DNA of 12,827 nucleotides from a virus. The DNA lies in the UHGV virus genome UHGV-0112014; one strand, written 5' to 3'. Under the pieces are notes generated by a model. It worked only from the letters and a program-made list of their open reading frames with translations. It had not been told where the DNA came from and did not search any database. Both the position numbers and the translations under genes were made by a program. The stretch's first letter is position 1, and the number at the start of each line of letters is the position of its first letter. Of the stretch, positions 1,702-10,200 are shown piece by piece.

Positions 1702-2427
1702 ATGAAAAATTATACTGCTGATCCTTTTATGCGTGCGATTTTTGGTTCTGGCTGCTTTGAAAGCGGTGATAAATCTACGCCGGGAAATGATGATAAAGCC
1801 ATGCTGGAAAGCGCCGAACAGAAAACTCAAACAAAGCCAAAAGAAGATATTGAAACCGCGATGATGGAAGCGGTTGAGTCTCGCGCACAAGGAGATATGC
1901 GCAGCCTGGCGGCTTCCATGCTTGCAGGCTGGATTGAAGATGGCGATCCAGAAGCTGACTCATTTGATGCGTTAGCAATCACTATGGCTGGCCTGGCTGA
2001 TATCGATGAAGACACCGATTTTACCGATGAACAAGTCGATGCTTATAACGATGCTCTTGCAGCCCTTGCAGATGCTGCTGTTGCGCTTGGCGCAGACCAG
2101 GACGACGTGACCGAGATGATCGACGATGAAGATGACTCTGCTGCCGAACGTGTATATGACGCGCTTTCCGAAAGCGACGCCGACATGATGGAAGCGGCTA
2201 TTGCCATTTACACCGTTGCTGGTGGTGACAGCGCAATGCTGGAAGCGGTACGTAAAAAAGTGGTCCGTGATGGCAAGGTTACCATTATCCGTAAGCGCCC
2301 GCGCCCTCGCCGCATGACATCATTGCAAAAACAGGCGCTGAAAAAAGCACGCCGCAAAGCGCATACATCCGTAGCAAATATCAACCGCAAAAAATCAATG
2401 CGCATTCGCAAAAAACGCGGTTTGTAA
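1702..2427 (+). CDS. Hypothetical protein with a strongly acidic Asp/Glu/Ala-rich N-terminal body (about 200 aa) and a strongly basic Arg/Lys-rich C-terminal tail (about 45 aa)
   Basis: ORF track gives 1696 (TTG); the ATG at 1702 is preferred because GAGAGG at 1688-1693 sits 8 nt upstream. TAA stop at 2425-2427. Composition is read from the translation (...DIDEDTDFTDEQVDAYNDALAALADAA... then RKRPRPRRMTSLQKQALKKARRKAHTSVANINRKKSMRIRKKRGL). No family recognised. Confidence 0.75.
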   Translation: MKNYTADPFMRAIFGSGCFESGDKSTPGNDDKAMLESAEQKTQTKPKEDIETAMMEAVESRAQGDMRSLAASMLAGWIEDGDPEADSFDALAITMAGLADIDEDTDFTDEQVDAYNDALAALADAAVALGADQDDVTEMIDDEDDSAAERVYDALSESDADMMEAAIAIYTVAGGDSAMLEAVRKKVVRDGKVTIIRKRPRPRRMTSLQKQALKKARRKAHTSVANINRKKSMRIRKKRGL

Positions 2428-2476: not shown

Positions 2477-3067
2477 TTGATTTGCGGCGCGATAATGCCT
2501 GATGGAATAAGTCCATTGATGAAGGTTTATATCCTCTCCCCTGAGGATATGGTCGTCGGTTATATCGGTGAAGGATCTACCGCAGAACTGTCTTCAATGT
2601 GGCAATCACCATTTGAAAACCAGTCAGTCGGGGGCTTGCTTGGCGGTATTAGCGCAGCGGCTGGCTCTCTCGCTGATACACTTCAGACCGCAACCGGCGT
2701 AACAACAAAGACCCTCTTTAACTCAATGCTTGTTTGGGAAGGTCAGCAACCGCCTGAATTTAATCTGGTTATTGACTTCATGGCGACAGTAAACGCGCAA
2801 CTTGAAGTGAACGCAGCCATTACAGCATTACTGAAGATGGAATCGCCGGAACTGAACAATGTAGCGCCATTCGGTCGCCGCCCGGAGACGGTAACGTTAA
2901 ACATAGGTAGAAACATAGCCCTTACCGACGTCGTTATCAAAAGCGTGAGTTACCAACTGGACGCTCCGCGCACACCGGAAGGCTATTTCACTCATAACAC
3001 GGTAACCCTGCAATGCAGCGGAAACACCTCTATTAACCGTAGCAATATCTCATCTGTTTTTGTGTAG
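2477..3067 (+). CDS. Tail structural protein, possibly tube-family or tube-initiator-like (196 aa)
   Basis: TTG start at 2477 with GGAGG at 2464-2468 (8-nt spacer); TAG stop at 3065-3067. Position between sheath and a gp19-like tube gene; beta-rich composition. Functional assignment is weak. Confidence 0.55.
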   Translation: MICGAIMPDGISPLMKVYILSPEDMVVGYIGEGSTAELSSMWQSPFENQSVGGLLGGISAAAGSLADTLQTATGVTTKTLFNSMLVWEGQQPPEFNLVIDFMATVNAQLEVNAAITALLKMESPELNNVAPFGRRPETVTLNIGRNIALTDVVIKSVSYQLDAPRTPEGYFTHNTVTLQCSGNTSINRSNISSVFV

Positions 3068-4895: not shown

Positions 4896-4985
4896 GATGC
4901 TTTAATTATGTGTGCTGGCGGGATGATCATTTCCCGTCAGCAACCACGCCCCCAACGATAGCGGGTAGGGAAGGAAGCGCAATTT

Positions 4986-5230
4986 TGAGGGCATTTTTTA
5001 CATCATCAATCCATCTGTAATGATGGCATTATTTACACATTCCAATGTAATCAATAAGTTAATCTAACAAACGATTAAGGAAAAAAGCAATAAGAATGCC
5101 AGACACACACGATATAGATTGAGGGTAATTTTTACATAACCTTTACCTATCAATATGTTACATAAAAACATAAACTGCAAACGACAAGATACATGCGATT
5201 TAGATGTAAAAATTGCCCTCAATTGCCCTT
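4986..5230. repeat. Iteron-like repeats downstream of rep (incC-like): direct copies at 4986-5004 and 5120-5137, inverted copy at 5205-5222 plus a partial at 5223-5230
   Basis: TGAGGGCATTTTTTACATC, TGAGGGTAATTTTTACAT and the reverse complement ATGTAAAAATTGCCCTCAA share the TGAGGG(C/T)AA core of the upstream iterons. 5113-5137 and 5197-5222 form a head-to-head pair flanking an AT-rich spacer. Confidence 0.55.
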
Positions 5231-5561
5231 AAGACTGTTGATAGGTAAATTTTATCCTGGCAACTTTGCCGCCTTCCGTCACTTCTGAGAAGACTATTTT
5301 CATTTTTGTATTTTTTTCAATCTCTGCTACAGCCTTCGTTAAAAAACTTCTCTTAAATTCAGCATACCGCTGGTAGCTTTTTGGCAGCCCGTAACGCTCC
5401 CGCATCCATTCAACGCCAAGTATAGCGAAGCCGCTCCCATCATCCTTTCTATACTGGCATAAGGACTCATAAAGCCGCATAGAATAAGGGTTTGTCAGGC
5501 GAGACACTTCAGTAAAATTCAGCCTCGTGAACCTCTTATCAAGCAGAGTAAAAAACGGCAT
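5229..5561 (-). pseudogene. repE: C-terminal fragment of the repE-like initiator (WH2/iteron-binding region) downstream of the amber codon
   Basis: Sub-feature of the pseudogene above. In frame with the N-terminal fragment, with no convincing independent SD before the ATG at 5559-5561. Confidence 0.55.
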
Positions 5562-5585
5562 GAGATATGGATTCAGATGAATAAT

Positions 5586-5984
5586 CTAAGTCCCCCGGCG
5601 TGGTGAGTAAGCCTCCTTAATCATCCAGGGATAAGACTCATAACTGTCTTCTGATTCGGTTGATTCATCAGGGTTATATATCGTGACTTTCTTCTCACTA
5701 AGTCCGGAGATAGCTTTACGAATATCCTTGCTGGCTTCAGCAGAGGGCAAATTATACATCTCTGCATATTCGTTGACCGTCAACTCACAGGCTCCTGAAC
5801 CAAGAACGCCATCCTTAGAAGCATAGCGAAGTCTTCCCACCACAATAAACAACAGTCGCTTTTGGTCGCGTGTCAGATGATAAGCCGCCTCTGTGATCTC
5901 ATTAGCCTGCGCCAAGCTACGGCTAATTGGTGTCGCTGATTCAATCAGACTGACGGCTTTTGCCGTTAATTCCGCTCTGTTCAT
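5586..5984 (-). CDS. repE: N-terminal fragment of the repE-like initiator (132 aa, WH1/dimerisation region), terminated by the amber codon
   Basis: Sub-feature of the pseudogene above. It has its own start and plausible SD, so a truncated product could be made. Confidence 0.6.
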   Translation of the reverse strand: MNRAELTAKAVSLIESATPISRSLAQANEITEAAYHLTRDQKRLLFIVVGRLRYASKDGVLGSGACELTVNEYAEMYNLPSAEASKDIRKAISGLSEKKVTIYNPDESTESEDSYESYPWMIKEAYSPRRGT

Positions 5985-6008
5985 AACCCTGTGTGATCCT
6001 TCAAATGG

Positions 6009-6130
6009 TGAGGGCAATTTTTACATCCCTTTGAGGGCAATTACTACACCTTTTGAGGGCAAATCTTACACCTACTGAGGGCAAATCTTACACCTTAATA
6101 GCTTAATTGAGGGCAAATCTTACACCTTGC
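6009..6130. repeat. Origin iteron array: five direct repeats of about 22 bp (consensus TGAGGGCAAATCTTACACCT) immediately upstream of rep
   Basis: TGAGGGCAA cores at 6009, 6032, 6054, 6076 and 6108, giving spacings of 23, 22, 22 and 32 bp (about two helical turns). The last three copies are near-identical. The core resembles recalled F ori2/incC iterons (...AATTGCCCTCA in the other orientation). Confidence 0.8.
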
Positions 6131-6164
6131 TCCTCTACAAGCCGCGCCACGCTTGGCCTCTGCG

Positions 6165-6230
6165 ATGCCTAAAAAGGATCTAAAAATGATTAAAAATGGA
6201 AAAAGATTTATAAAAATACTCTGTGGATAT
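6165..6230. promoter_or_regulatory. AT-rich tract (candidate DNA-unwinding element) followed by a DnaA-box-like site TGTGGATAT (6222-6230)
   Basis: AAAAAGGATCTAAAAATGATTAAAAATGGAAAAAGATTTATAAAAATACT, then TGTGGATAT, which is 8/9 to the reverse-complement DnaA-box consensus TGTGGATAA. Sits between the iteron array and an inverted iteron copy. Confidence 0.5.
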
Positions 6231-6247
6231 GTGAATAGCGTCACTTA

Positions 6248-6268
6248 AGGTGTAAAAATCACCCTCAA
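6248..6268. repeat. Single inverted iteron copy (AGGTGTAAAAATCACCCTCAA) on the far side of the DnaA box
   Basis: Reverse complement TTGAGGGTGATTTTTACACCT matches the iteron consensus apart from a C-to-T change within the conserved core and a few mismatches in the body. Confidence 0.5.
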
Positions 6269-6373
6269 TAGTTGCTGTTCGATCGACGAAATCATCACTC
6301 AATCCCCCCCTCCGAAATCACACACTCCCTATCCTCTGGAAAATGAACAGACACCTGCTTATCGGAGGAATAC

Positions 6374-7195
6374 TTGAACATTCCAAAATTCCCATTGCCT
6401 TCCCGTCCTGAGACAGAAATTCAGTTCCACGCCCCAACCGTGAAGGATGCGCTGAAATATTCTGACCTGAACCCGGCAGAAGATGAGGCAACTACTACAG
6501 AGTACCTTAACTCTATGCAGGATGGTGAAATTAACGACAGTGCTTACTGGACAGTCCAGGATCGCAGAACTGCCCTTTGGTGGATATTTGTTAACTCGCG
6601 CCCCGATGCAGTAATGACCTACTCCTATGAGTGCAGTCACTGCGGTAATACGCATCATGCAGATATAAACCTGAGCGATCTGGCTCAAACAGTAGAGATA
6701 CTCACTGTACCGCCTTACATAAAAACCAACGTACCGGTAAACGGCGTACCAACCAACTGGATACTTAAACCATTAACCGGAAAAGGCGCTGAACTCCTTG
6801 AGCGTATGCGGGCATCACTTCCTGATATGAAAAGCCCAGAATACAGTGCGGGCGTGGCACGTATGCGAATTGCAGAACTCGCTTTATGTACCGCGCTTGA
6901 AGACGATCCAGAAGACTTCACGCAAGCCGCCAATCGTCGCTTTGACATCATTGAAAGCATGGCGCTCGAAACGGAATTTACTCCGCTTGTTGCTCGCATA
7001 CAGCTTATGCAAAAAGACCTACGCCACGGCCTGAAAATGTCTATTGAGAGAGGCAAAAGCCGCCTGATCCTGCCTCCGCAACGCTGCAAAAACGCTAAGG
7101 AGGGTGCAGACGTGACTACCACGCTGTACGCCCCATTTCTCAATAGAGAGTTTATCCCATCAATTAGATCTGAATGGATGGCTAACCATTATTAA
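6374..7195 (+). CDS. Hypothetical protein (273 aa) opening the second + strand tail/baseplate block; contains a CSHCGNTHH Cys/His motif
   Basis: TTG start at 6374 with GGAGG at 6364-6368 (5-nt spacer); TAA stop at 7193-7195. No family recognised. A tail-assembly or baseplate role is inferred from position only. Confidence 0.55.
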   Translation: MNIPKFPLPSRPETEIQFHAPTVKDALKYSDLNPAEDEATTTEYLNSMQDGEINDSAYWTVQDRRTALWWIFVNSRPDAVMTYSYECSHCGNTHHADINLSDLAQTVEILTVPPYIKTNVPVNGVPTNWILKPLTGKGAELLERMRASLPDMKSPEYSAGVARMRIAELALCTALEDDPEDFTQAANRRFDIIESMALETEFTPLVARIQLMQKDLRHGLKMSIERGKSRLILPPQRCKNAKEGADVTTTLYAPFLNREFIPSIRSEWMANHY

Positions 7196-7249
7196 CAACC
7201 TGACTCTGTATGGATATCAGCCCGTTAGTGACGTTGAACAATTGCCACA

Positions 7250-10200
7250 ATGGCGAGCACTCCATATGTCAAAAGCCCTGGAAGAAAAATACAAAGCTCA
7301 AGCCGGGAAACGTTGATCGCCGCTGGCAAAAGAGAGGTTATTTTGAAAGAGAATAAAGACCGCATCGCAATAATTGACGCTATTCAGGGGGCGAGCGCAC
7401 ACGAACTTAAGGCTCTTGCTGAGATAAAAGACGCGATTCTTTCTGGTGGGGTCGCCATAACTCAACAGGGAGGACAACAAGGTAAAGTTAGCAACAGGCT
7501 ATCCCGTAGGCGTAAAGACTACGGGCAAAACGCACCTGAAGTCGTCAGAGACGCTCAAGCTAATCCATATAAAAAACGCCTTCCGGCGAAAAAGGAGAGG
7601 GCGCTAATAAACCAGGACATAGATCGCTCTATCGTTGCAACTAACACACCAGAAAGTGTTCATTCTGTGCGATCACGCCAGACCATCAAAAGGTCGAAAG
7701 GTTCTATACCGGTAGCAGCTAATTCTACCTCTCTGCAACCACAATCCCCCCAAAGCCCAAAAGGCCAACTGCGGGATAGTAACGGGCGCTTTGTATCCCA
7801 GAAAAATAATGAGGATATAGCCAGAAAAAAAGAATGGCAGAACGCACGTAAGGCCGACGCAAAACTACAAGAAGGCTTTCTCCGGAAGCTGGGTTCTGTT
7901 ATGGGGATGGATGGAAATCAGTCCACCAGTGAAGAGTCTTTAACAAATGCCGCAGGTGTTGGGGCTGGTGGTCCGCTATGGATGGCGGCGCGTGGCATGT
8001 ATGACATTGCAAAAGAGATCACAGGGAAAGCAAAATCACTTAAGGAGTGGGTAGATAATTCACCAGACACCAAAGCAAAATCGCCAGCGATCACTTACCC
8101 GGCTGTAGCCAATGCTCAAAAAACAACCTCCGCAACAGCATTTAATAATGCTGTTGAGACAAAATCCGCACAAGCAGTAGAAGAGCAAACAAAAATTCTT
8201 CAGACCAATGACAACAAAATAATTGATGGTCTGGAAAATGTCTCCGACGAAGTAGCTAAGCTACGTAAATCAGTATCTTCTGGGAATAAGTTCGGCTTGA
8301 GTGATCTCTGGAGAAATCGAGCAAGCAGAAGAAATAAAATCAATATTGGCGATCAGGCTGGTAAAAATAAACGGAGCAAACCGAAAAGGAAAGGTCGCAA
8401 TCTTGGGGGAAAAGCCCTTTCCGTTGGCGAAAAAGTCGCTGCCGGAACCGCTGCTGTTGGCGCTGGTGCCGGAGCTGCAAAGACTGTTAAAACAAAGGTT
8501 AGTAAAGCCAAAGACATCAGCACCACAAGCGACGTATCTAAGGGTATTGCTAAAGAAACAAAAAACACAGCAAAGGCAGTTAAGCCAGCAGGTGTTGTTG
8601 CCGAAGAGGCCACAATTAAAACAGGTGAGACTGTTTCAAAGAAAAAAACCGAATCTGTAGCCCTCAAAAGTGCTGCAAAAATAGGCGTTAAATCAGCTGC
8701 ATCTACAGCGGCAAGAGCTATCCCTATTATCGGGTCGTTGGCAATGGCTGGATATGACGCTATAGACGGTTACACAGATACAGATGCGCAAAAAGCGGCC
8801 TTTGGCTTAAGTGATGATGATATTGTATCCACACAGCAAAAAACCGCTTATGCAACAGCTAATGTGCTTGATATGGGCGGCTTAGTGTCGGGTGCAACCA
8901 ACCTAATAGGTAAAGGAATCTCTGCGTTAGGCTTCGAAAGGGCAGGTGAGAAACTTCAGAATTTTGATACCGAAGATATTGCTCGTGGTGTTAATGGTGC
9001 TGTAGATATCACTAAATCTGCTTTTGGTAGCCTCAAGGATACATTTTTATCCTCTGACGAGAGCACGAAGCAGGTAAAAAAAGCAGTTGAAGATGGCACA
9101 AAAAAGACTGTCGATGCGATTCATTCTTTAGGTGAGCAGCTACAAGGCGGGCGTGATGGTGAAGATGGTGTTGGTGAGCACGGGTATACTTCCCCGGCTG
9201 AATTTAATGCGCCTGCCAGCAATACCATTGCAGCGGATCTGAATATTGGCGGGAGCAACGCTAAAAACCGTAATTACCGGAATAATAATCTCGGCAACCT
9301 TGTTTTCGCTAATCAGGAAGGGGCGACACTGGAAGCGCCAAATGCAAAAGGTGAACAGCGTTTTGCTCGATTCAACACGCCTGAAGAAGGGATCAGGGCG
9401 CTGGCAAACCAGGTGTCAAGTTATTATAACGGCACCAGTGCCGCTGCTGGGTATCAGAAGTTACAGACGGTATCCAGTATTATTTCCAAATGGGCACCCC
9501 CAAAGGAGAACAATACTAATCAATATATCGATAACGTCAGCAAATATCTTGGTGTCTCGCCTAATGAAAAAATAGACGTCAGCAACCCGGAGGTTATGAC
9601 GCAATTAGTTCGTGCTATTGCGACGAAAGAAGGCGGAAACCCTGCGGTTAATAATGAGTTTATTAAGAATGCTCTTGGGGCGTTCAATGCAAATACCGGT
9701 CGTTGGGAGGGGCGCTTCTCCGATGAAACATTGGCGCGGCTTAATAAAATTCAGAAAGAGAATGGCGGTCAGCTAATTGCTCGTGATTCGCAATATAGCG
9801 TTGGTCGCAAGGTGAGATATGCTGATGGTACATCTCCGGCACAACCTGTATTGAATGCAGTCCCAACAGCAACACCTAAGCCAATTGAGGTTGCACAACA
9901 TGCCCAGGCAGCAAAAAAGCCACAAAAAACAGGTAACCGACCACAACCGATTATTCCAGAGAACGCTGATGTTAATACTGACTCGCCATCGAGTTTGCTT
10001 GAGCGGTTAATCGCCATAAATGAAAGCGGTATCAGTGGAGTAAGTGATTTATTTGGCGGCGCGGCTACCAGTCTTGCTGGAACAAGTCTGGACTTGGTGA
10101 AGGATTTTGCGTCGGATACTTCATTTGGTTCTATATCTTCGCTTTCAGAAAAGGCGAAGGGAATGGATCAGGCTCTGACTGAAAAAATATCCGGCTTAAC

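Follow-up and report, generated by a model that had tools for sequence, protein, structure and literature searches.

Prohead proteases of the T4 type recognise short motifs and cut after Glu; they also trim their own C-termini and act on internal or ejected head proteins, which bear targeting propeptides at the N-terminus (PMC5694885). In phage P1, the maturation cut of the capsid protein was mapped by Gonzales et al. by the Edman method to E120/S121 (PMC9024508; here and below a slash marks the cut). P1 is one of the founding model phages and the prototype of the phage-plasmids, which draw attention as carriers of resistance genes, and its gene 21 has been labelled a tail or baseplate gene for decades. 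Here we examine a 12,827-nucleotide stretch of the virus genome UHGV-0112014, referred to as the window. The whole window matches Escherichia phage D6, a P1-family plasmid prophage, at 90.6% identity over its full length, and represents a D6-like phage-plasmid of the P1 family. Its open reading frame (ORF) at 1702-2427 on the + strand encodes a 241-residue bipolar protein, the orthologue of the product of P1 gene 21 (gp21) and D6 orf47. Between the acidic and basic poles of this protein lies a conserved copy of the maturation site of the capsid protein. The protein is thus most likely a precursor that is cut apart by the prohead protease.

Motifs of the capsid maturation type in a protein with two charge poles

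The first-pass annotation of this locus had described a polyacidic body followed by an abrupt polybasic tail, and charge profiling bore this out. The product contains 30 Asp, 17 Glu, 38 Ala, 18 Lys and 17 Arg residues. Residues 1-193 have a net charge of -32 and an isoelectric point of 4.05, while residues 194-241 have a net charge of +20, an isoelectric point of 12 and no acidic residue at all. Summed along the chain, the charge is lowest (-36) at residue 181, where the switch is abrupt. The basic module proper begins at about residue 182 and comprises 60 residues with a net charge of +24; the 45-residue tail of the first-pass annotation corresponds exactly to residues 197-241.

An AlphaFold2 model of the protein is all-helical, with a mean predicted local distance difference test (pLDDT) score of 76.6. 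Confidence is low (pLDDT <50) at residues 17-43 and 177-189, which are predicted to be disordered linkers. Residues 1-36 (1702-1809, +), the predicted N-terminal propeptide, end at the first predicted cleavage site and include a short helix at 8-14; by analogy with the capsid-targeting sequences of T4 (PMC5694885), they form a candidate capsid-targeting peptide. Residues 47-172 (1840-2217, +) are modelled as an acidic domain of six helices with a pLDDT of about 90. The polybasic module, residues 182-241 (2245-2424, +; 7.1 kDa), contains a predicted basic helix-turn-helix at residues 207-239 (2320-2418, +), with helices at 207-220 and 223-239 and a pLDDT of about 88-92. A search of the model against solved structures in the PDB gave no significant fold match, DNA mimics included, and nothing in Pfam, NCBIfam or PADLOC matched the protein.

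In the P1 capsid protein (gp23), the mapped cut lies in the context NKAMLE/SVAAEM, and the homologous position in D6 reads GKAMFE/SVAQS. The window protein contains four M-[LM]-E/[SA] motifs of this P1 capsid maturation type. At predicted site 1, A33-M-L-E36/S37 (1798-1812, +; context DDKAMLE/SAEQ), the six residues KAMLES (32-37) are identical to the mapped P1 capsid-protein site. Predicted site 2, A53-M-M-E56/A57 (1858-1872, +), is located at the start of the first long helix. Predicted site 3, A178-M-L-E181/A182 (2233-2247, +), reads SAMLE/A at 177-182 and falls within the second disordered linker, exactly at the charge switch. An additional motif, M162-M-E164/A165 (2185-2196, +), resides in the last helix of the acidic domain and not in a linker; E164/A165 is the weakest candidate site. 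The two best-conserved sites, 1 and 3, are both found in the low-confidence linkers of an otherwise confident model.

Four copies of the motif compare with 0.028 expected in the window protein, and none of 200,000 shuffles reached four. We also built the D6 proteome from its annotation (107 proteins, 26,170 amino acids), with expectations again taken from shuffles. The motif AM[LF]E[SA] occurs there six times against 0.084 expected, and no protein other than the capsid protein, DarA, the protease Pro and gp21 carries it. The broader motif M[LFM]E[SA] occurs nine times, in these same four proteins, which hold 6.8% of the residues. Capsid protein, DarA and Pro are already known or believed to be Pro substrates.

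For Pro itself, a BLASTP alignment (E value 5e-6) links the N-terminal part of the D6 protein to the LIS04 protease of a Listeria phage, and this protease of phage LIS04 matches Pfam PF03420, which is S77, the T4 gp21-type prohead protease family. A Pfam scan of D6 Pro gave no match. Judged by its alignment to an S77 protease, the name "tail fiber protein" that RefSeq and PHROG attach to Pro is wrong. Pro carries three or four AM[LM]E/S copies within a helical C-terminal extension of ~160 residues, which suggests auto-processing as well as a protease-scaffold fusion. The pro gene is located at 22494-23492 of the D6 locus (L005) and at 19014-20033 of the P1 locus (L004).

DarA (gene at 27904-29823 in the P1 locus and 28166-30103 in the D6 locus) has a predicted cut at E69/A70 in P1 (DLLE/AISSTR) and at E65/S66 in D6 (AMFE/SITTTR). 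In the P1 cryo-electron microscopy (cryo-EM) study, residues 1-69 of DarA are invisible and were presumed to be cleaved (PMC12810830). The Pfam DarA_N domain of the D6 protein has its start at the motif. With density missing for residues 1-69 and the domain starting where it does, the motif predicts a known processing event.

Family conservation and co-variation with the capsid protein

No family had been recognised in the first-pass annotation, a statement that did not hold. Residues 1-241 align with positions 1-230 of the 230-position profile phrog_1053 (E value 8.6e-84), and the protein belongs to the P1 gene 21/D6 orf47 family, PHROG 1053, listed with "unknown function". By tblastn its identity is 94% to D6 orf47 and about 42% to P1 gp21. 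The identical protein is present on 47 public Escherichia coli contigs of up to 91 kb, and a profile search of 1.84 billion representative proteins returned 584 clusters (50% identity) at an E value <= 1e-3. This is therefore a conserved gene and not a chance ORF. Among the matches listed, most family members have 190-300 residues and end in the basic module. When the C-terminal module was used as query in a word-indexed search, the top 120 matches were of the same P1-like family and included no named or fused relatives. Three longer members (P0241, P0243 and P0246) contained no further recognisable domain and so offered no informative fusion.

In an alignment of 29 diverse members, the N-terminus and the acidic body vary, and the basic module is the best-conserved part. 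Invariant or near-invariant columns are concentrated in this basic tail, with the pattern KVVRxGKV...AQKxALKKARRKAxTSxA...RxKSMxxRKKRG. Within the variable regions, the cleavage motifs stand out: site 1 is retained within an otherwise variable linker of this alignment, and the linker motif of site 3 is conserved while its surroundings vary. For site 1 we used local motif extraction, since column-based alignment is unreliable in the variable N-terminus. Site 2 is present family-wide as phi-phi-E/A in 85 of 138 representatives. Just 5' of the basic module, a hydrophobic-hydrophobic-[E/D]-[S/A/G] motif is found in 100 of the 138, compared with 22% of random control windows. We also considered a shared N-terminal targeting motif, "NPL", seen in several gp21 homologues and in D6 DarA, and rejected it as a mere tripeptide that is absent in P1 DarA.

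To compare the cleavage sites of the capsid protein and gp21, we drew on public viral contigs and one metagenomic contig for a set of 144 related loci. Pairing each gp21 homologue with its own capsid protein gave 65 distinct pairs in which both the capsid-protein site and gp21 site 3 were scored. In these pairs, which are not independent in phylogenetic terms, the residue preceding the cut (cleavage position P1) is Glu in both proteins in 59 cases and Asp in both in six, with no mismatch. The class of the residue at position P3 matches in 63 of the 65 (Met-Leu in both, 46; Ile-Val in both, 17), leaving two mismatches. The Asp pairs come from two sequence contexts, ILD/S and LLD/S, and in the Asp lineages Asp is also present at the N-terminal gp21 sites. 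At one such locus (L007), the capsid protein has AILD/S, and gp21 has VFD/S, ILD/A and LILD/A. Several coordinated changes of this kind, at separate sites of two proteins, are difficult to account for unless one and the same factor reads the motif in both.

More distant relatives are found in Listeria phage LIS04 and Bacillus phage SP-15, where a 341-residue protein has a similar acidic stretch and basic module; the homology of the basic module is detected by hhalign with a probability of 99.2% and an E value of 1e-19. In LIS04, a Firmicutes jumbo-type myophage, the protein is encoded by gene 64 (6419-7444 of locus L089), which has its homologue in SP-15. The basic module is internal in this protein and is followed by an extra domain of ~85 residues. 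It has an [LI]xE motif on either side (QLEE/R... and ...RRIKE/SFD), and the whole protein has six such motifs, compared with zero or one in the neck and tail neighbours. Gene 64 lies between a head-tail adaptor gene and a tail gene, downstream of the capsid gene and of a gene for a protease fused to a long coiled coil, which is likely a scaffold. Between D6 and LIS04, pairwise similarity is detected for the protease (E value 5e-6), the capsid protein (3e-8) and the bipolar protein (hhalign, 1e-19), and none is detectable for the sheath (0.43). The family thus travels with the head module. In the alignment of the two capsid proteins, GKAMFE/S of D6 stands opposite NRALLE/T of LIS04.

Gene order, signals and neighbouring genes

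The gene order of the window is the same as in D6 and P1 by comparison of annotations. The sheath gene (P1 gene 22; 2-1660) is followed by the bipolar-protein gene (1702-2427, +) and then, in order, by pmgG, bplB, pmgC and tub; a repA-like gene on the opposite strand comes after tub, and the last genes are pmgB, sit, pmgA and bplA. In D6, the major capsid gene (P1 gene 23) lies directly upstream of the region equivalent to the window, and the order 23-22-21-pmgG-bplB is common to D6 and P1. A capsid-protein gene on the same strand lies upstream of the gp21 homologue in 125 of the 144 related loci. The first-pass annotation had placed the gene between sheath and tube genes and regarded it as inserted where myovirus clusters usually have nothing. 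The position is as it said, but the slot between sheath and tube-like genes is conserved in P1, D6 and the distant locus L007, and the gene is no oddity.

The bipolar-protein gene starts at ATG 1702 and ends with TAA at 2425-2427, according to the ORF list and its translation. An alternative TTG is present at 1696, and the D6 annotation uses the same start Met as ATG 1702. A Shine-Dalgarno-like element, GGAGAGAGG (1686-1694, +), can be read from the sequence 7 nt before the ATG.

GC-rich hairpins had been reported on both sides of the gene, and both fold as claimed. The upstream hairpin, between the sheath stop codon and the gene (1668-1687, +), has an 8-bp stem formed by CCCCCGCA and TGCGGGGG with a GAAA loop. 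Its folding energy is -19 kcal/mol (z = -3.7), none of 200 shuffles was equally stable, and its 3' arm abuts the ribosome-binding site. It is missing in P1, where the gap between genes 22 and 21 is 9 nt. The downstream hairpin, between the stop codon and pmgG (2435-2456, +), consists of AGGCCACCU, a GCAA loop and AGGUGGCCU, with a 9-bp stem and a folding energy of -18.8 kcal/mol (z = -1.8). A terminator scan of the + strand of the window called neither hairpin, and no clear U tract follows either of them, so neither scores as an intrinsic + strand terminator. With no + strand terminator site found and the upstream hairpin missing in P1, we dropped both as terminators or as parts of a mechanism and treat them as lineage-specific intercistronic stem-loops.

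Among the neighbours, pmgG (2477-3067) has a start that is ambiguous by six codons: the mechanically called ORF begins at TTG 2477, and the start annotated in D6 corresponds to ATG 2495. It is preceded by the 2435-2456 hairpin and a GGGAGGA run. Further downstream, sit encodes the tape measure, with a transglycosylase domain, and pmgB (6374-7195) lies directly upstream of it. PmgB has a weak, sub-threshold Pfam match to PF12322, a T4 baseplate protein (23.7 bits, cutoff 24.5), and a slot just 5' of sit is expected for a tape-measure chaperone or a hub assembly factor.

The repA-like plasmid replication gene (5229-6017, -) contains an in-frame stop (RRGT-stop-IIHL) and is split into ORFs at 5586-6017 and 5229-5561. 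D6 has Tyr at the stop position (RRGTYIIHL) and an intact 251-residue protein. The gene of the window may be a pseudogene or a nonsense allele open to suppression, or the stop may stem from a sequencing error. Iteron-like repeats of 21-22 nt, TTGAGGGCAAATCTTACACCT, are spread over 4985-6269 of the window: five near-tandem copies occupy 6008-6127 just 5' of repA, others lie at 4985, 5119 and 5741, and the repeat is inverted at 5199-5223 and 6245-6269. The tail gene cluster contains, between tub and pmgB, an iteron replicon.

Proposed processing, alternatives and known systems

We conclude that the bipolar protein is probably a prohead-internal precursor, cut by Pro into a propeptide for targeting, a helical domain of acidic character and a polybasic peptide that is conserved. 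It would be synthesized late, from an operon shared with the major capsid protein and the sheath, and would enter the assembling prohead with its first 36 residues as the candidate targeting propeptide. Pro would then cut after Glu at E36/S37, E56/A57, E181/A182 and possibly E164/A165, using in gp21 the same motif as in the capsid protein, in DarA and in Pro itself. Five fragments are predicted: the candidate propeptide (1-36), a short peptide (37-56), an acidic fragment of 108 residues (57-164; 11.4 kDa, net charge -30), a second short peptide (165-181), and a basic fragment (182-241; 7.1 kDa, net charge +24) that ends in the predicted helix-turn-helix. In our preferred reading, the acidic domain serves as a carrier or filler that can be removed: it probably keeps the basic module neutralised until cleavage and would then be expelled or displaced by incoming DNA. 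The polybasic module would be the conserved element that does the work, attached either to the inside of the capsid shell, in a scaffold-like manner, or to the packaged DNA. It is the cleavage, the prohead location, and the fate and role of the fragments that we infer. Packaging into the particle, one of the ideas of the first-pass annotation, is in line with the findings.

A more specific version of this scheme is possible, and we put it forward only tentatively. The protein may be the self-neutralised precursor of a protamine-like head peptide, in which the acidic domain masks the 60-residue, +24 peptide until the linker is cut by the prohead protease; the acidic mask then leaves, and the polybasic helix-turn-helix stays on the packaged genome and may enter the host with it. 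This would be a phage counterpart of adenovirus pVII and mu, reaching from E. coli phage-plasmids to Listeria and Bacillus phages. Such a peptide would be missed by published virion proteomics, with its few tryptic peptides, and would be unresolvable by cryo-EM.

Public entries for the family carry the names "baseplate or tail tube", "tail tube protein" or "hypothetical". Our results do not support the "baseplate or tail tube" annotation, and the public gp21 label is probably wrong. The model is all-helical, with neither a tube-like beta fold nor a match to a solved tail or baseplate chain. A family-profile search of a 2026 copy of the PDB found no chain for gp21, while the neighbouring P1 PmgG is present there (9ay5, 9vzk). 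In the 2026 whole-virion cryo-EM study of P1, the tube is BplB, the tube initiator is Tub and the tube linker is PmgG; hub, spike, wedges and plug are assigned to proteins other than gp21, which is neither modelled nor mentioned (PMC12810830). The literature searched, which includes this study and the 2022 proteome paper, contained no discussion of gp21 function. In the latter, gp21 is not listed in the table of P1 virion proteins identified with liquid chromatography coupled to tandem mass spectrometry (PMC9024508). This absence is a weak argument, since processing would leave few tryptic peptides. In the processed window protein, the acidic core is a run of 83 residues without Lys or Arg; the basic tail yields just one tryptic peptide of 10 residues (that of P1 yields none longer than 7); and most detectable tryptic peptides cross a predicted cleavage site. 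Negative mass spectrometry therefore says little about retention in the head.

Several points weigh against a prohead-internal precursor, and classical genetics is the chief one. Amber mutants of P1 gene 21 are said to have been scored as tail-defective, and these would be the origin of the "baseplate or tail tube" label. Classical genetics suggests that heads form without gp21. If the ambers are truly in this ORF, are non-polar and leave heads normal, gp21 is at most a dispensable head component, that is, an accessory internal protein and not an essential scaffold. Gene 21 also lies amid tail genes, away from the protease and portal genes. The relaxed motif phi-phi-E-[SA] is found as well in unrelated P1 proteins (14 of 41), so that in the P1 lineage, conservation and co-variation carry more of the argument than exclusivity does. 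The co-variation counts, moreover, lack phylogenetic independence. Searches of Pfam, NCBIfam, PDB sequences and folds found no homology to a known scaffold, such as those of the P22 gp8, phi29 gp7, T4 gp22 and T7 gp9 families, or to a core or internal protein. Finally, P1 is stated to have no separate scaffold (PMC9024508, PMC12810830). It already has two scaffold-like elements, a 120-residue domain at the N-terminus of the capsid protein and the C-terminal half of Pro, which is helical. We had considered gp21 as the missing scaffold of P1 and downgraded this candidate: with the motif-rich helical extension of Pro and the protease-coiled-coil fusion of LIS04, scaffold functions seem to be already covered, and we do not name gp21 "the" scaffold.

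The genetic argument is open to another explanation. PmgG is the tube linker and BplB the tail tube, and deletion of P1 pmgG abolishes tails. The classical gene 21 alleles may lie in pmgG or bplB, or be polar on them, and would then give a tail phenotype. This bears on the first alternative, that the protein is a tail or baseplate assembly factor, such as a non-virion chaperone for the assembly of sheath, tube or tape measure. Its acidic body would shield basic surfaces, and its basic tail would dock on an acidic partner. We consider this alternative unlikely. Mutations in pmgG or bplB, or polarity on them, would produce the same phenotype as the reportedly tail-defective ambers from which the tail annotation stems. 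The position of the gene between sheath and pmgG/bplB agrees with such a factor, as does the absence of gp21 from virions, which a chaperone would share, and tail assembly chaperones are usually acidic. A tail factor, however, leaves unexplained the four capsid-maturation motifs, the restriction of the motif to head substrates and the co-variation with the capsid protein. The tail-chaperone or tape-measure analogue proposed in the first-pass annotation also fails on position: sit is 4.8 kb away with five genes between, and pmgB, not the bipolar-protein gene, adjoins it and occupies the tail-chaperone slot. No chaperone family was matched in Pfam, NCBIfam or PHROG scans.

A packaged and injected anti-restriction or anti-defence effector, with the acidic domain as an Ocr/ArdA-like DNA mimic and the basic tail serving packaging or co-ejection, appears somewhat less probable still, and the DNA-mimic role suggested in the first-pass annotation finds no support. 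An effector of this kind would be expected to conserve its acidic body, and the family shows the reverse, a poorly conserved body and a conserved basic module. PADLOC gave no match, nor did Pfam or NCBIfam, and the model resembles no solved structure, mimics included. The absence of gp21 from virion mass spectrometry counts against an injected protein weakly, given that the acidic fragment has almost no usable tryptic peptide. On the other hand, the size and charge density of the acidic fragment (108 residues, net charge -30) are those of known mimics. Heads of the P1 family do carry injected anti-restriction proteins, the Dar system (PMC9024508, PMC12810830), and T4 and phiKZ-like phages load ejected proteins by way of a propeptide and protease processing (PMC5694885).

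Least probable is that the protein binds nucleic acids in the cytoplasm, for example as an accessory in packaging or late regulation, and stays outside the capsid, with a motif that has nothing to do with cleavage. The very basic, conserved helix-turn-helix tail, as modelled, would suit DNA or RNA binding, and entry of the bipolar protein into the head is a prediction. But the motif is an experimentally mapped cut in the capsid protein (PMC9024508), and its exclusivity and co-variation would go unexplained.

If the prohead-precursor reading is correct, gp21 is an overlooked component of P1 head assembly, and the gene map of a classic phage is revised. The specificity of the P1 prohead protease would be hydrophobic-hydrophobic-Glu/Asp followed by Ser/Ala, which predicts the DarA cut at E69/A70 and the auto-processing sites of Pro. 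Several hundred sequence clusters from phages of Proteobacteria and Firmicutes would gain a testable function. The propeptide and motif could also be used for loading foreign proteins into P1 heads, beside the DarB signal. More generally, a cleavage motif combined with co-variation can reassign a structural gene that has no homology to a known protein.

Compared with P1 gp21, D6 orf47 and PHROG 1053, the window protein is orthologous and differs in nothing structural; what differs is the inferred function. It resembles T4 gp22, gp67, gp68, IPI-III and Alt, and their phiKZ and SPN3US counterparts, in its predicted loading into the prohead and cutting by an S77 protease after hydrophobic-x-Glu (precedent in PMC5694885). 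As in the T4 internal proteins, the predicted propeptide has a cleavage site at its end, and cuts at several sites would break the protein into pieces. Unlike the T4 core and internal proteins, to which it has no sequence or fold homology, it is encoded amid tail genes. We know of no T4-type core or internal protein described with a folded acidic domain, a cleavage site and a conserved polybasic helix-turn-helix.

The predicted architecture also recalls scaffolds of the P22 gp8 type (phi29 gp7, 80alpha gp46), which share an acidic helical body and a basic C-terminal helix-turn-helix and are not in the mature virion. In the P22 scaffold, the basic C-terminal helix-turn-helix is the coat-binding domain. 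In contrast to these scaffolds, the body of the bipolar protein is modelled as several short helices (47-172), not long ones, and there is no homology; the P22 scaffold exits intact, whereas the bipolar protein is predicted to be cut. The P1 family already has scaffold-like domains on its capsid protein and on Pro.

Adenovirus pVII and pX(mu) are Arg/Lys-rich DNA-condensing peptides whose precursors are released in the capsid by the maturation protease. They offer an analogy for a retained basic peptide, with virus, protease and sequence all unrelated. Tail chaperones such as lambda gpG/gpGT and P2 gpE/E+E' are likewise acidic, non-virion products of tail-cluster genes; the bipolar protein differs from them in its distance from the tape-measure gene, its size of about twice the usual, its lack of a family match and its head-protease motifs (a frameshift signal was not searched for). 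DNA mimics such as T7 Ocr and ArdA are similar to the acidic fragment in size and negative charge density, with no sequence or structural similarity, and the acidic part is the least conserved of the family, unlike what is expected of an effector of that type. Taken against these systems, the bipolar protein is best described as one of the likely targets of T4-type prohead proteases, unusual in its self-neutralised acidic/polybasic design.

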